A stretch of DNA of 32,000 nucleotides, from assembly GCF_000018105.1 (NCBI RefSeq), contig NC_009925.1:4680001-4712000 (forward strand), read 5' to 3'. Under the pieces are notes generated by a model. The model saw only the letters and a list, made by a program, of their open reading frames with translations. It had not been told where the DNA came from and made no database searches. This DNA comes from Acaryochloris marina MBIC11017 (GTDB lineage Bacteria > Cyanobacteriota > Cyanobacteriia > Thermosynechococcales > Thermosynechococcaceae). Positions 9,075-32,000 of this stretch are shown here, piece by piece. Each line of letters begins with the position of its first letter. The first letter of the stretch is position 1. The position numbers and the translations under genes were made by a program.

Positions 9075-11551
9075 GCCTCATTCCATACCAACATTTCCGG
9101 GAAATTCCCAGAAATGGTAAACCCCACCCAATACCAAGGGTGACTAAACGGACAAACATCTTGACCTGACTCCTGGGCTGCGGCCTGGAGTTCAGCTTCA
9201 ATTCGTTCAAGGGTGTTTTTTTGTGAGCTGTCCAATTCTAATGTGTTGCCCAGGGTAATCCACCATTGAATCGCATGCCGGTAGGTGAGGTTGCGAAGCC
9301 AGTGCTGAGCCTGACGCAAGGCATGAACAGGATTGCCGTTTTGGTGCAATAGATGATGGACCTGGGTCATCAGCATGATTCGGGAACAGTGATTGACCTC
9401 CCACAAGCTGTTGAGCACATGCTGCACCCCTAATGAGAGCAGGCATGTTTCTAGATCTGGAATAGACCCTGGCAACGGTTTAAGGTTTTGGGGACCACCC
9501 GAGAGGCAAACCGTTGCATAGGATTGCCAATCCAATGCAAATAAGTCCTTTAGAGTCAATTGCTGGCCATTGGCTAGAACCCAAGCCGGTAAAGGGAGCG
9601 TTGAACGATTTGTAGCCGTCACTCCCGTAAAATGAATACTCCCTCCCGAGACCTTGAGCGCCGCCAAGACCGTCTTCTGAGTCAGCTGGAGTCCTCCCAA
9701 TTGAATATGCTGTCGGTAGGATCGAGCGATGGCCAGGGTCTCTAATTCTGTGAGGTTATTATCTTTCTCCTCATTAGAGCCTTGGGGCGGAACAATGGTT
9801 AATAGATGGTCTTGGGGGGAAGACTTTGCGGTCAGTAAATTGAGGCCAATATGCAAACTGGGGAGGAGCGTAATGCTAATCTCTTCTGGGAAAAGGGCCG
9901 CCATCGGTAGGTGACGCCATTGCTCAGGTCGCACAAGAATCAGTTCTTGAATACCGGATAATGCGTTTTGGCATAAAGCCTCAATGGCTAAAATCTCTTT
10001 CAGTTGGGTTAAGAGTTGGACCCCTTGCCCTTTCAACCAAAAATTAGCCCCCAACCCTAAAACTGAATCCGAATTTTTCTGGGACAGATGCTGGGCTTTA
10101 TCCCAGTTTTTTTGCCACAACTGCAGGCAAAAATGCTGATCGATCAGAGCAGTATCTAGATCCGTCAGGTGAGCCGATTCTGATTCCAAGGAGTGGGCAC
10201 AAAACAGCACAGGGTCTTGGTTGGATTTGAGAATAAAGGTATACAGGTGGGCGGGACTGAGATGCCAATAGAGAATGGCTCGCTGAGGATTGAGGAGGAG
10301 GGTAAGGTCCGTATATTGATGCTGAACTGGATCGTGATCAGGACCAGATTGCCAATATCCTAAGGTGCGATCTTTGCAGCGTTCTGCCCACAGAATCGCG
10401 TCTTTCAATTGATTCTGCTGGACCAGCCAGTCGACCTGCATCTGTTGAAAACCAGCAAATTGTTCTTCTAGCTTTCGATCCTGCTCAGGGGATAGATTGA
10501 CATCCCGCTTGATGGTTTGTAGCTTGATGGCACCTTCAAGAAGCATGGAGTGAACGGCAGCCGTTTCTTGCAAATGGAACCGCACTTGCAGTAGAGATTG
10601 CCAGATGGTTAAGTGATGCTGAGGAAAGGTTTGGAAATCCAGCAAATCTAGGGCTCTTAGATAGCTTAATTTTGCTGCTTTCCACATTTTGGTTGGCGAC
10701 GGATCTTGCCAAGCCTGTTGAGCTTGAAAATCCCCTTTGCGCTGATGAAGACTGCCACAGCCTAGGGCATAATCATCAGCATCACACCACAGGGCATCAA
10801 TACCTTGATTCCAAATCGCAATGCCAGCGTCTGCCCCCTGAAGATGAAGCATCGCCATCCCCAGATCGTCCCAAGCTTGCCACAATTGTTTATCGGTCCA
10901 GCGCAGGGCTTGCTCGTAGCTATGAATCGCGTCTTTGAAATTACCCAGCTGAATTAAAATGCTGGCCCGGTTATTCCAGGCTTGGTACAAATCGGGTTGA
11001 TGCTCTAGGGCTTGATCAAAACTTGCGATCGCATCCTCAGATCGCTGTAAATTGAATAAAACCAGCCCCCGTTGATACCAAGCCTGGGCATGGTTAGGCT
11101 TAAAGGCCAAGACTTTATCATAGGCGGCTAAGGCAGCATCAAAATCTTTGGCTTTGGTGCAAGCCAGGGCGCGTTTTTGCCAAAAGTCATAATCTTTACC
11201 AGAGATTGCGTCAGCGGTGGCAGGCGGTACGGCCTCTGTTTTGACTGGCATAGGCGGGGCTTCTGGCTTGCCCTCGGCTTTGGCTAATAAAGACTCTAAG
11301 GGAATCATTTTGAGTTTGGCCTCTGGGCTGCCAAAGAGGCGTTGAGCATTATGGTTCGCCGTGATTGCCTCCCCATAAAACCCTAATTTCTGCAGCACAT
11401 TGCCACATTGCAGCCAGGCATCTGCGTTCCTAGGGGTCAGAGCCAGACCTTGATGAATACAATTCAGGGCATCAATATACTGATTCTGTTGGAGATACGT
11501 TTTTGCCTGCTCCAGCCAAGTCAGGGAATCTGAGAAATCAGGGCTCGTCAT
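9071..11551 (-). CDS. TPR-repeat protein with a C-terminal CHAT (caspase-like) domain, apparently lacking the catalytic dyad
   Basis: 826 aa. The N-terminal 300 aa show repeated A..Y..AL...P....AW.n.g..L TPR signatures. The C-terminal 190 aa align to the CHAT consensus (..IHFTGVTA.., ..TVCLSGGPQ.., ..LNSLWEVNH.., ..SHPWYWVGFTISGN). Confidence 0.8.
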   Translation of the reverse strand: MTSPDFSDSLTWLEQAKTYLQQNQYIDALNCIHQGLALTPRNADAWLQCGNVLQKLGFYGEAITANHNAQRLFGSPEAKLKMIPLESLLAKAEGKPEAPPMPVKTEAVPPATADAISGKDYDFWQKRALACTKAKDFDAALAAYDKVLAFKPNHAQAWYQRGLVLFNLQRSEDAIASFDQALEHQPDLYQAWNNRASILIQLGNFKDAIHSYEQALRWTDKQLWQAWDDLGMAMLHLQGADAGIAIWNQGIDALWCDADDYALGCGSLHQRKGDFQAQQAWQDPSPTKMWKAAKLSYLRALDLLDFQTFPQHHLTIWQSLLQVRFHLQETAAVHSMLLEGAIKLQTIKRDVNLSPEQDRKLEEQFAGFQQMQVDWLVQQNQLKDAILWAERCKDRTLGYWQSGPDHDPVQHQYTDLTLLLNPQRAILYWHLSPAHLYTFILKSNQDPVLFCAHSLESESAHLTDLDTALIDQHFCLQLWQKNWDKAQHLSQKNSDSVLGLGANFWLKGQGVQLLTQLKEILAIEALCQNALSGIQELILVRPEQWRHLPMAALFPEEISITLLPSLHIGLNLLTAKSSPQDHLLTIVPPQGSNEEKDNNLTELETLAIARSYRQHIQLGGLQLTQKTVLAALKVSGGSIHFTGVTATNRSTLPLPAWVLANGQQLTLKDLFALDWQSYATVCLSGGPQNLKPLPGSIPDLETCLLSLGVQHVLNSLWEVNHCSRIMLMTQVHHLLHQNGNPVHALRQAQHWLRNLTYRHAIQWWITLGNTLELDSSQKNTLERIEAELQAAAQESGQDVCPFSHPWYWVGFTISGNFPEMLVWNEA
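11025..11032. repeat. HIP1 octamer GCGATCGC
   Basis: Exact match read in the sequence. Confidence 0.95.
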
Positions 11552-29825: not shown

Positions 29826-30123
29826 ATAGTCTCTGGTCGTTTCTGGGGAAGACTAGGCCCACAGATACCTAGATTAAAAGAATACAGGTATCATGCCTTA
29901 CCTATATCAATTTCAATCATGTCATTTCTAACATTGCCTTGAAGCTAAAGACCGAATTAAATTGAGAACATATGGATTCGCTCGTCCCATAGTGGTAATG
30001 GATAGCCTAACTCTAGCTAATGGTGAATAACCATCTTTCTATAGATGATTTGAAACGTTTTGGCGTCCAAATAACATCATCCTTCAATCCTGAATACAAC
30101 AGCTCTGCAAAAATGTTTCCTGT

Positions 30124-30141
30124 ATGTACATTTATGTACAT
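30124..30141. repeat. Two palindromic ATGTACAT octamers 10 bp apart (operator-like)
   Basis: ATGTACAT at 30124-30131 and at 30134-30141, separated by TT. They sit in the AT-rich spacer about 450 nt upstream of the hydrolase ORF. Confidence 0.3.
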
Positions 30142-30588
30142 TCCAAAATCAAAGAGGTCTTATGCATTTTTGGTGGAAGAAATTGAGTTCTAAGGTAAGT
30201 TATGGCTGACTAGGCGATACATCGGACCGCTAAGCAACCGGTTATTTGAGAAGTTATTTACCCTAACTCCCATCTCAGATCACCAAAAGAGGGCAAGTCC
30301 CAATTAGATGCATCCATTGTTAATGGTCTCATCCAGTGAACCTAGTTATCTTAATCTCAAAGCTTGCTGAAGACTCGCATAATATCAGGATTTTTCCTTG
30401 ATAATTAGCCGATATCTGTTACGAACACAGCCATGCCTGAACCCTTTACCCTGACAGTCGCTTCTATGATCACAATAAATTCAAGTCACAAACTCAGAAA
30501 AGAGATAATGCATCGTGAAAATTGAGGCTAAAGGCCAAATTCCATATCTGATGATTTCTGTTTTATATTCAACATCTGGTGCTAAAAC

Positions 30589-31500
30589 ATGAATAAGCAA
30601 GGTAAATGGTTGAGAGAACCAAAGAATGGCCTTAACGTGGTGTTTATTCATGGGATTCACTCAAGCGATGATTGCTGGAGATCCAAAAACGGGACTTACT
30701 GGCCGAATTTACTAAAAGCTGAAGGTGAATTAGATGATATAGGAATCTACTTGTTTTCCTATCAAACTGGATTCAATGCAGGTTCCTATAGTTTGGGGGA
30801 CATCGTTGACTCTTTATATGAGCATATAACTAATTTTGATCAGGTCTTGGATAGCGATCGAGTTATCTTTGTGTGCCATAGTATGGGAGGTATTATCGCA
30901 AGGCGATTCCTGGTTAGAGAAGAATCGAACTTAATTGATAAAGGACTAAAACGCATTGGTTTGTTTCTGGTGGCATCTCCCTCATTAGGTTCTGATTATG
31001 CCAATATGCTTGCCCTTGTATCAGAATTTTTCGGGTATACACAAGCAAAGACTTTGAAATTTTCCCAGAATAATGTCTGGCTCAATGATTTGGACAATGA
31101 TTTTATTAACCTCAAAGATGCGAATAGATTAAATATTAAGGGGCAAGAACTCATTGAAGCTTTACCCATTAAAATCATTCGTTTCTTTGGCTTCAAAAAA
31201 CAAATTGTGGAACCATTCTCAGGCGCAAGATATTTTGGCAGATCCTATAAAGTAGCTGGTTCAGATCACATCACAATCGCCAAGCCTGAGGATAAATATG
31301 CAGACCAGCATCGCTTACTGATTAATTTCATCAAGGATTTTGAAAAACCCTACAATTTATCTAAAACCCAAGCATCAGAGACACAAGACCTATCAAATCC
31401 CACAAAAAGAGATCAAGAAAATCAAATTAGATTGCAGTTCAATAATGAGATATCTGGTGGGGTAGTAAACCAAGCAGAAACTATCAATATTCAGAATTGA
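30589..31500 (+). CDS. Alpha/beta-hydrolase (lipase/esterase-like, PGAP1/lipase-class-2-like nucleophile elbow); probable N-terminal effector module of the downstream NB-ARC ORF
   Basis: VVFIHGIHSS (oxyanion-loop region), VIFVCHSMGGIIARRF (Ser nucleophile elbow) and AGSDHITIAKP (candidate catalytic His). The C-terminal N/Q/G-rich linker is ISGGVVNQAETINIQN, followed by TGA at 31498-31500. G+C is clearly lower than in flanking genes. Confidence 0.75.
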   Translation: MNKQGKWLREPKNGLNVVFIHGIHSSDDCWRSKNGTYWPNLLKAEGELDDIGIYLFSYQTGFNAGSYSLGDIVDSLYEHITNFDQVLDSDRVIFVCHSMGGIIARRFLVREESNLIDKGLKRIGLFLVASPSLGSDYANMLALVSEFFGYTQAKTLKFSQNNVWLNDLDNDFINLKDANRLNIKGQELIEALPIKIIRFFGFKKQIVEPFSGARYFGRSYKVAGSDHITIAKPEDKYADQHRLLINFIKDFEKPYNLSKTQASETQDLSNPTKRDQENQIRLQFNNEISGGVVNQAETINIQN

Positions 31501-32000
31501 CTAAAGTCGTCCGACTGGGACCGGACAGAGTTAAATCCCAATATTCATATCCCCAATAATCTTCCCCGTAGTGGTGTGATTGCTTTCGAGGGTCGGGAGG
31601 ATCTGCTTACTCAACTCCAAAGCCAGCTCAAGAACAATGAGCTAAGTGGTATCACTGGAGTCAGAGGCATGGGTGGAATCGGGAAAACAGAGCTTGTCCT
31701 CCAGTACGCGATCTCCTGTTTTAACCAACAACTCTATCCTGGGGGTGTTTGTTGGCTTCGGGCGAGAGATCAAGAAATTGCTACTCAAATTATCAGCTTT
31801 GCCAAGGCTAATCTGGGCATCAAACCACCCGATAAACTAGAAACTAAGGAGAAAGTGAAATTCATATGGCAACGATGGCCAGAAGGAGATAGCCTCGTTA
31901 TTGTGGATGATGTCACAGACTATGCTGCTATCGATCCCTATCTACCACCTGCCTCACAGAAATTCAAGATCCTGATTACCACACGCATCAATCTCGGTTC
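31501..32000 (+). CDS. NB-ARC (STAND/AP-ATPase) NTPase domain protein, partial; start unresolved, in frame with the preceding ORF across one TGA
   Basis: The frame starting at 31501 stays open to the window end. It reads ..NLPRSGVIAFEGREDLLTQLQSQL..ITGVRGMGGIGKTELVLQYA (P-loop), ..SLVIVDDVTD (Walker B) and ..FKILITTR (RNBS-B-like). The only in-frame start candidates before the P-loop are non-ATG (GTG 31576), and none has a visible SD. Confidence 0.8.

Follow-up and report, generated by a model that had tools for sequence, protein, structure and literature searches.

The DNA examined here is a 32,000-nt window of Acaryochloris marina MBIC11017 (NC_009925.1, positions 4,680,001 to 4,712,000), at the right end of which an alpha/beta-hydrolase open reading frame (ORF) is followed, in the same frame and after a single TGA, by an ORF for an NB-ARC NTPase with tetratricopeptide repeats (TPR). 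We propose that this TGA is a site of programmed stop-codon readthrough stimulated by a pseudoknot just downstream, and that the two ORFs constitute one recoded gene, a reading suggested by comparative sequence evidence and to which we assign a probability of roughly 0.65. The TGA is the first part of a conserved module of ~42 nt, comprising a putatively leaky stop, an 8-nt spacer, and a small predicted pseudoknot. Readthrough is favored because the stop shares the frame of the downstream NOD-like receptor (NLR) ORF, because UAA and a U at the +4 position are absent from copies of the module, and because sense variants of the stop yield continuous ORFs.

The effector ORF comprises 303 codons (30589-31497, like all features described here on the forward strand), begins at ATG 30589, has the C-terminal end ..ISGGVVNQAETINIQN, and stops at TGA 31498-31500. 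From codon 31501 onward the same frame is free of stops to position 32000 and encodes NLPRSGVIAFEGRE, followed by the P-loop GMGGIGKT (31666-31689), the Walker B motif LVIVDDV (31894-31914), and ILITTR. A first-pass annotation of the window had described two ORFs in one frame with a lone TGA between them, and both the sequence and the codon reading agree with it. Its two domain assignments were likewise upheld by Pfam scores above the curated cut-offs in each half: 39.2 bits for Abhydrolase_6 (cut-off, 26.3) and 30.5 bits for DUF676 (cut-off, 20.3) in the first, and 43.9 bits for NB-ARC (cut-off, 23.5) in the part of the second ORF that lies in the window (31501-32000), where it runs off the edge. 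The full ORF, taken from an extended contig (L001; AP026075.1, in which window position 30589 is position 10001), has 680 further in-frame codons after the TGA; it raises the NB-ARC score to 63.4 bits and carries TPR_12 and TPR_10 repeats past the window edge, the C-terminal sensor that had been predicted to lie there. The hydrolase itself is 100% identical to an A. marina "esterase/lipase family protein." It is in frame with the NB-ARC ORF but is separated from it by the UGA, and the two would be on the same polypeptide only given readthrough. A promoter/terminator scan found no promoter- or terminator-like site between the hydrolase and NLR halves, and a tRNA scan found no tRNA gene in the window, hence no local suppressor tRNA.

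Within one genome, an effector-NTPase frame that is continuous but for a lone in-frame stop looks like the result of a nonsense mutation, and the first-pass annotation had offered such a mutation, or a sequencing error, as one of three explanations. We examined five stand-alone hydrolase relatives picked by protein similarity alone (78, 68, 57, 58, and 61% identity). All five have a stop at the equivalent site, UGA in four and UAG in one, and in all five the downstream NTPase ORF opens in the same frame. The NTPase is of the NB-ARC-TPR type in three of them; that of L007 is NACHT-like with a glycine-rich membrane region, and L006 is a decayed copy of the L007 type in which the downstream frame is broken after 43 codons. 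About 40 nt past the stop are conserved as nucleotides, even where the linker before the stop cannot be aligned. Two more distant stand-alone hydrolase relatives have ordinary, out-of-frame partner genes, one after a 10-nt gap (annotated Gammaproteobacteria) and one with a 28-nt overlap, indicating that the in-frame stop does not come with the hydrolase family in general.

The element was sought in one-genome-per-species contigs with a pattern, AGTCGYCYGANNNGGANCRGRCARAGT, that excludes the stop codon. It matched 70 stretches, every named one of which is cyanobacterial (Nostoc, Scytonema, Brasilonema, Moorena, Symploca, Fischerella, Tolypothrix, Xenococcus, Coleofasciculus, Acaryochloris, and others), and in 70/70 a UGA or UAG lies exactly 7 nt upstream of the pattern. 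This stop closes an ORF of 130 to 390 codons and is followed by an in-frame ORF of up to 1045 codons. A looser pattern, applied to metagenomes and leaving the stems unforced, matched 36 stretches; two are chance-like, being stopless with unpaired stems, and the remaining 34 have UGA or UAG in 33 cases and UGU in one (L104). Copies that escape the pattern, three found by fuzzy matching and two by BLAST on Acaryochloris plasmids, also keep the UGA and an intact element. The element occurs once in the window, with 0.00 matches expected in shuffles.

The choice of stop codon and its context are strongly skewed. Among 105 distinct contexts, UGA occurs in 96, UAG in 8, UGU in 1, and UAA in none. At +4, 93 contexts have C, 9 have G, 3 have A, and none has U. 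Ordinary ORF ends at the same loci have TAA in 170 cases, TGA in 96, and TAG in 90, with A (126), T (101), G (66), and C (63) at +4 (n = 356). A U at +4 lowers readthrough in bacteria (PMC5289835). The -1 base is also uneven (U in 84 contexts, C in 19, A in 2), and the last sense codon is mostly UUU, AUU, AAC, ACU, or UCU; this bias may be part of the signal, through the P-site tRNA or through effects of the last residue. UAG is found at L005, L015, L016, L035, L040, L060, L097, and L107. Going from UGA to UAG takes two substitutions, via UAA or sense UGG, neither of which is seen among extant copies.

Over 100 independent assemblies share this stop, its frame, and the sequence that follows, which is far beyond chance. 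The first-pass annotation had looked to orthologues for a sense codon at the TGA; they keep the stop, with UGU the one sense codon in 105 contexts. The view of the locus as a pseudogene, or as an ordinary fusion gene hit by a recent nonsense mutation or misread in sequencing, could point to the few loci that have decayed downstream (L006, L066, and L070), but 105 distinct loci, spread over many genera and including complete genomes, have the stop at one and the same position, and the long downstream ORFs are intact and under coding constraint. The comparison refutes this explanation, to which we give practically no credence. The decaying copies, L006 (6685-8308), L066, and L070, keep the stop and pseudoknot intact, but stops or frameshifts interrupt their NTPase frame or their upstream ORF has been cut short.

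The sequence past the stop was aligned without gaps for 93 distinct 48-nt elements, with the stop in columns 1 to 3. The spacer is fixed at 8 nt in 93/93; in the window it is CUAAAGUC (31501-31508). It leads into a predicted H-type pseudoknot of 5 + 4 bp, in which stem 1 pairs columns 12-16 with 25-29, stem 2 pairs columns 20-23 with 39-42, and the loops measure 3, 1, and 9 nt, the last being A-rich. The window copy, identified by pairing and covariation, spans 31509-31539: 31509-31513 (GUCCG) would pair with 31522-31526 (CGGAC), 31517-31520 (GGGA) would pair with 31536-31539 (UCCC), and the A-rich loop 3 is AGAGUUAAA (31527-31535). Standard pairs fill 98.2% of pair cells, versus 17 to 54% when the partners are slid by 1 to 3 columns. 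Three pairs covary: 13-28 (UA 55, CG 33, UG 5, with 0 mismatches), 15-26 (CG 55, UG 31, UA 5, GC 1, with 1 mismatch), and 20-42 (GC 70, CG 11, GU 6, AU 4, with 2 mismatches). The 3' arm of stem 2 lies outside all search patterns, and the C-A mismatches that the genome pattern permits were not seen. The encoded amino acids differ with these compensatory changes (Ser/Thr versus Pro/Ala), which places the constraint on the RNA. A search of Rfam around the junction at permissive E-values returned chance-level matches only and no family.

These covariations also bear on the idea that the junction is a DNA-level feature, kept alike by recombination or gene conversion among NLR paralogues for the exchange of effector modules. 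Effector domains are indeed swapped before the same motif-stop-element-NLR unit, several copies can occur per genome, some of them in tandem, and copies are found on plasmids. However, compensatory changes that keep two helices paired indicate selection on RNA structure rather than on DNA identity, the swap boundary at L068 lies ~30 codons upstream of the stop and not at the element, and a recombination site needs no leaky stop in a fixed frame. We regard a DNA-level origin as improbable.

A more serious competitor holds that two genes are translated separately, the NLR starting at a downstream GTG or TTG or at a non-canonical codon, and that the pseudoknot serves regulation: translational coupling, NLR initiation, mRNA processing or stability, or protein binding. 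Public gene calls do show two genes, many loci have a GTG or TTG 0 to 45 codons past the stop, and non-cyanobacterial hydrolase relatives have ordinary adjacent or overlapping partner genes; effector/NLR gene pairs are moreover a known architecture (Dyrka et al. 2020). At the window locus the calls start the NLR gene at GTG 31576 (31576-31578), or even at the Met within the P-loop. As claimed earlier, a frame scan found no in-frame ATG before the P-loop; the first ATG after the TGA is the Met inside GMGGIGKT, and GTG 31576 is the sole canonical in-frame start in between. This GTG is not conserved in orthologues, and a start position is conserved nowhere. In loci having a canonical in-frame start, the first lies anywhere from 0 to 62 codons past the stop; in seven (L003, L004, L005, L068, L016, L040, and L051) it is the P-loop Met of GMGGIGKT, and in 13/50 loci it falls within 12 codons of Walker A, or later.

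The coding signature was analyzed pairwise, in codons that lie past the pseudoknot and, for either sequence of the pair, ahead of the earliest possible start. In this region, upstream of any canonical start, substitutions at codon positions 1/2/3 numbered 322/298/583, and 457 of the 962 differing codons were synonymous. The downstream ORF is under coding constraint and has no conserved start codon. An HMMER search with the 166 post-stop residues against 1.84 billion representative proteins gave 3889 matches; among the best matches that extend N-terminally, nearly all align from query residue 13 to 17, immediately past the peptide encoded by the pseudoknot, at positions internal to the matched protein. 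Because the relatives align from there, NIHIPNNLPRSG, which is upstream of GTG 31576, can be placed within the conserved protein body. The GTG is residue 26 after the stop and lies within the conserved pre-NB-ARC segment; the stretch NLPRSG..F.GRE, rightly singled out at first pass as the conserved segment ahead of the P-loop, aligns to internal positions of all-in-one relatives. The post-stop sequence, LKSSDWDRTELNP.., contains neither a copy of the effector tail motif nor a start codon.

Two separate genes are thus at odds with a coding signature and a homology to internal parts of all-in-one NLRs that extend upstream of the candidate starts, and they leave unexplained the constant shared frame, the missing UAA and +4U, and the continuous ORFs of the sense variants. 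We consider this arrangement unlikely, if still worth keeping in mind. The suggestion that the locus is genuinely split into two genes holds formally only; readthrough at the TGA is the best supported of the three explanations first put forward.

Two loci carry a sense codon at the stop site together with an intact pseudoknot. L104 has UGU and a continuous 1003-codon hydrolase-NACHT-like ORF; L117 (P0229, 944 amino acids [aa]) has UAC and is close to the Moorena loci that use UAG. Plain hydrolase-NB-ARC, -NACHT, -TIR, or -AAA fusions without the element are numerous among the relatives, and the pseudoknot-encoded peptide is absent from ordinary fusions. A Cys variant such as UGU is frequent in selenoprotein families, and a stem-loop lies closely downstream of the UGA, so that the stop could be imagined to encode a non-standard amino acid such as selenocysteine, with the hairpin resembling a selenocysteine insertion sequence (SECIS). 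However, 8 loci use UAG, one variant has Tyr (UAC), the site is in a disordered linker, and the covarying second helix makes the structure a pseudoknot and not a SECIS hairpin. We know of no selenocysteine decoding in cyanobacteria, and we think this alternative very improbable. P0125, an all-in-one caspase-NB-ARC-TPR protein with an EACC1 (PF19953) gene directly upstream (L118, 138-497), has a linker, NLSEQERLRTNP, with a weak likeness to the peptide that the pseudoknot encodes, perhaps as a decayed relic of it. P0125 and P0184 were considered as such relics and, since the similarity is weak, were left out of all counts.

Under programmed readthrough, most ribosomes would terminate at UGA 31498 and release free hydrolase with its N/Q/G-rich C-terminal tail, and a minority would decode the weak UGA-C via a near-cognate tRNA and continue in frame. 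With the stop in the A site, the pseudoknot 8 nt downstream would sit at the mRNA entrance of the ribosome, where it could hinder termination or favor near-cognate decoding. The product of readthrough would be an effector-motif-NB-ARC-TPR protein of ~984 aa, a classical three-part NLR-like receptor. The occurrence and efficiency of readthrough, the amino acid inserted, and the joint action of the two products are what we infer from these comparisons. Deletion of the repressor TrcR increases stop-codon readthrough in Anabaena (PMC10272220), and by analogy readthrough at this junction could be condition dependent. Among other recoding mechanisms, frameshifting was ruled out, the downstream ORF being in the zero frame, as was bypassing (hopping), there being no conserved take-off/landing codon pair.

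Several points weigh against readthrough. The loci are phylogenetically related, and their counts thus overstate the number of independent events. Most of the sequences came from a pattern that fixes three stem-1 pairs and the GGA of the stem 2 5' arm, and the genome pattern also allowed only Y/R at the two variable pairs of stem 1. At 5 + 4 bp the pseudoknot is small, and the nested minimum free energy (MFE) fold of the 48 nt is different and no better than that of shuffled sequences (z = -0.86); because nested MFE folding is not significant, the case for the pseudoknot is wholly comparative. Many loci, that of the window included (GTG 31576), have a GTG or TTG usable as an independent start, and public annotation uses such starts. 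The extended protein product is itself deduced from sequence alone, and we know of no demonstration of pseudoknot-stimulated stop-codon readthrough on bacterial ribosomes.

The first module, assigned to the alpha/beta-hydrolase fold by Pfam, alignment, and AlphaFold/Foldseek, has the nucleophile elbow VCHSMGG (Ser98, codon 30880-30882) and an SDH motif (His227, codon 31267-31269). In an alignment of 35 sequences, S98 (HSMGG), H227 (SDH), and E190 are invariant and D226 is nearly so, but D191, conserved in at least 90% of relatives, is replaced by Ala191 (31159-31161; ELIED to ELIEA) in the window copy, as it also is in P0011. D191 may be the catalytic acid, in which case the window hydrolase could have altered or lost activity. 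The AlphaFold model has an alpha/beta fold with a predicted local distance difference test (pLDDT) score of 75.6, and residues 269 to 303 (pLDDT < 50) form a disordered tail. Foldseek matched the model to generic serine hydrolases, esterases, lipases, and the PlaB phospholipase with template modeling scores of 0.4 to 0.5, and a sequence search of the PDB gave no match. The "lipase" label is hence a guess, the model pointing to a generic alpha/beta-hydrolase fold. The effector-NTPase unit originally proposed stands as one functional unit, whereas its description as a lipase or membrane-attacking enzyme goes beyond the generic fold, and D191 is Ala in this copy. The accompanying claim, that experimental characterization is lacking for every NB-ARC system with a lipase-class effector, overlooked the fungal protein PLP-1 (patatin-NB-ARC-TPR).

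The hydrolase ends in an N/Q/G/V/I-rich motif, IRLQFNNEISGGVVNQAETINIQN (31426-31497), which is predicted to be disordered and is a candidate amyloid-type signaling motif. Its composition matches the description of the bacterial amyloid signaling sequence (BASS) motif in Dyrka et al. 2020. Across the loci, the element always lies between an effector ORF and an in-frame STAND NTPase ORF, of which there are two types; 34 of 42 downstream ORFs are NB-ARC-TPR. The 56 upstream ORFs include 14 alpha/beta-hydrolases, 2 TIR, 1 CHAT, and 1 EAD9, and the others are proteins of ~140 to 145 aa that start MEPLTAGAIA.. and match no Pfam, NCBIfam, or PADLOC family. By size, hydrophobic N-terminal helix, and acidic residue at position 2 or 3, these ~140-aa ORFs would fit the published description of Bell domains. 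PADLOC and NCBIfam named no defense family at the locus, and no PADLOC model for the Avs families matched, the matches being weak TPR or unrelated ones.

Most upstream ORFs end in short N/Q/G/T/V/I-rich motifs, although one hydrolase subclass has no such tail; the motif family STGYQT..GGT..IGG.HYH is found at the end of hydrolases and of Bell-like proteins alike. In Acaryochloris, either a Bell-like effector (L068, L115, and L116) or a hydrolase (L003 and L004) precedes the same motif-stop-pseudoknot-NLR unit, with homology between the swapped loci starting ~30 residues before the stop. When the effector domain is swapped, the tail motif travels with the stop, pseudoknot, and NLR. The NLR relatives P0122 and P0132 carry the same motif family at their own N termini and exemplify the classical arrangement in two genes set out by Dyrka et al. 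2020.

In a more speculative reading, one gene would supply both partners of an NLR pair: an abundant free effector with its amyloid-type C-terminal motif, and a rare readthrough sensor in which this effector and motif precede NB-ARC-TPR. The ligand-bound sensor would oligomerize, and its motifs would nucleate the polymerization and activation of the free effector pool. The stop-pseudoknot cassette would then also be a portable junction for the exchange of effector modules. If true, a single bacterial gene would thereby parallel fungal HET-S/NWD2 and the stoichiometry of viral Gag/Gag-Pol.

The element is found in several genomic settings. L068, L115 (plasmid pMB04 of Acaryochloris sp. "Moss Beach"), and L116 (a plasmid of A. 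marina S15) are paralogues of the window NLR on mobilizable or conjugative plasmids, behind a 142-aa Bell-like effector, and keep the tail motif, stop, and pseudoknot; the Prokaryotic Genome Annotation Pipeline starts their NLRs 29 or 16 codons past the stop. Tandem effector/NLR genes with the stop and pseudoknot, no more than 8 kb apart, occur at L009 (204 and 6421), L026 (2900 and 7868), L079 (4003 and 9648), L087 (6329 and 10408), and L112 (5186 and 8112), and Brasilonema sp. CT11, Iphinoe sp., and B. angustatum have three or four copies on separate contigs. In the window, G+C content is 32 to 45% across the hydrolase-NLR locus and its 760-bp upstream spacer (~30090-32000; 9500-13000 of L001), versus 48 to 53% in the housekeeping genes on either side (proB and genes for an Rce1-like protease and a methyltransferase), which fits an acquired island. 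A second STAND-type pair lies ~4 kb past the window end (L001, 15695-19605); it consists of a 364-aa AAA_16-like gene and, after a 2-nt gap, a 937-aa nSTAND1 gene, and lacks the stop-pseudoknot element.

We know of no conserved stop-codon readthrough signal in bacterial cellular genes that depends on RNA structure; if readthrough is confirmed, the junction would be the first, and one present in many copies across a whole phylum. Hundreds of cyanobacterial pairs annotated as "hypothetical protein" plus "tetratricopeptide repeat protein" would have to be reannotated, and it would become clear why some Bell-type and hydrolase effectors have a C-terminal motif with no matching NLR N terminus. It would also provide a testable handle on the sensor:effector ratio in NLR-like receptors and a compact 42-nt cassette with which to set protein ratios in cyanobacterial engineering. 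Within a partial coverage of the literature on readthrough, pseudoknots, cyanobacteria, and NLR/Bell/STAND proteins, we found no description of the element, and it is not described in a 2026 survey that covered the RNA structures of 202 genomes of cyanobacteria or in the main papers on bacterial STAND/NLR proteins.

A close parallel is the gammaretroviral gag-pol junction of murine leukemia virus (MuLV), which likewise has a leaky stop, an 8-nt spacer, an H-type pseudoknot, and a minor in-frame extended product beside a major short one. In the gammaretroviral signal, a shorter spacer impairs readthrough (PMC13517186). MuLV differs in being a eukaryotic virus that relies on 80S ribosomes and eRF1 and in using UAG and a larger pseudoknot, whereas the cyanobacterial element belongs to bacterial chromosome and plasmid genes, has a predicted pseudoknot of 5 + 4 bp, and is known from sequence alone. 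Some alphavirus relatives carry a sense codon at the readthrough site (PMC13517186), as do the cyanobacterial L104 and L117. Unaided readthrough of UGA in bacteria amounts to 1 to 6% (PMC13517186). The A1 protein of phage Q-beta and the leaky UGA codons of Escherichia coli and Bacillus subtilis resemble the junction in their context-dependent, near-cognate decoding of UGA by bacterial ribosomes at a few percent (PMC13517186), but differ from it in that a covarying pseudoknot is conserved phylum-wide here. To our knowledge, no conserved downstream RNA structure is required in those cases. The bacterial SECIS shares the principle of an in-frame UGA redefined by an RNA structure immediately downstream; unlike it, the element also uses UAG, has a pseudoknot structure, and would specify a linker rather than a catalytic residue.

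On the protein side, the effector repertoire (Bell-like, hydrolase, TIR, and CHAT) is that of the Bell/BASS effector-NLR pairs of filamentous bacteria (Dyrka et al. 2020) and of fungal HET-S/NWD2 and SesB. As in the Bell/BASS pairs, the effector lies directly upstream of, and collinear with, NB-ARC/NACHT-TPR and has an N/Q/G/V/I-rich end, a likeness of composition and position only. In the published pairs, however, the NLR has its own start codon and an N-terminal copy of the motif, and the NLR ORF here has neither; Dyrka et al. 2020 describe the same effector set and mention neither stop codons nor readthrough. All-in-one hydrolase-NB-ARC proteins (P0020, P0045, and P0051 of Mesorhizobium waimense) contain the same hydrolase family joined directly to the NTPase, matching with 38 to 43% identity over 99% of the fused query, but their junction has no stop and no pseudoknot-encoded peptide. 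The kind of signal proposed here is known from viruses; what appears to be new is its presence in bacteria, in many copies, where effector and sensor meet in immune-like genes.

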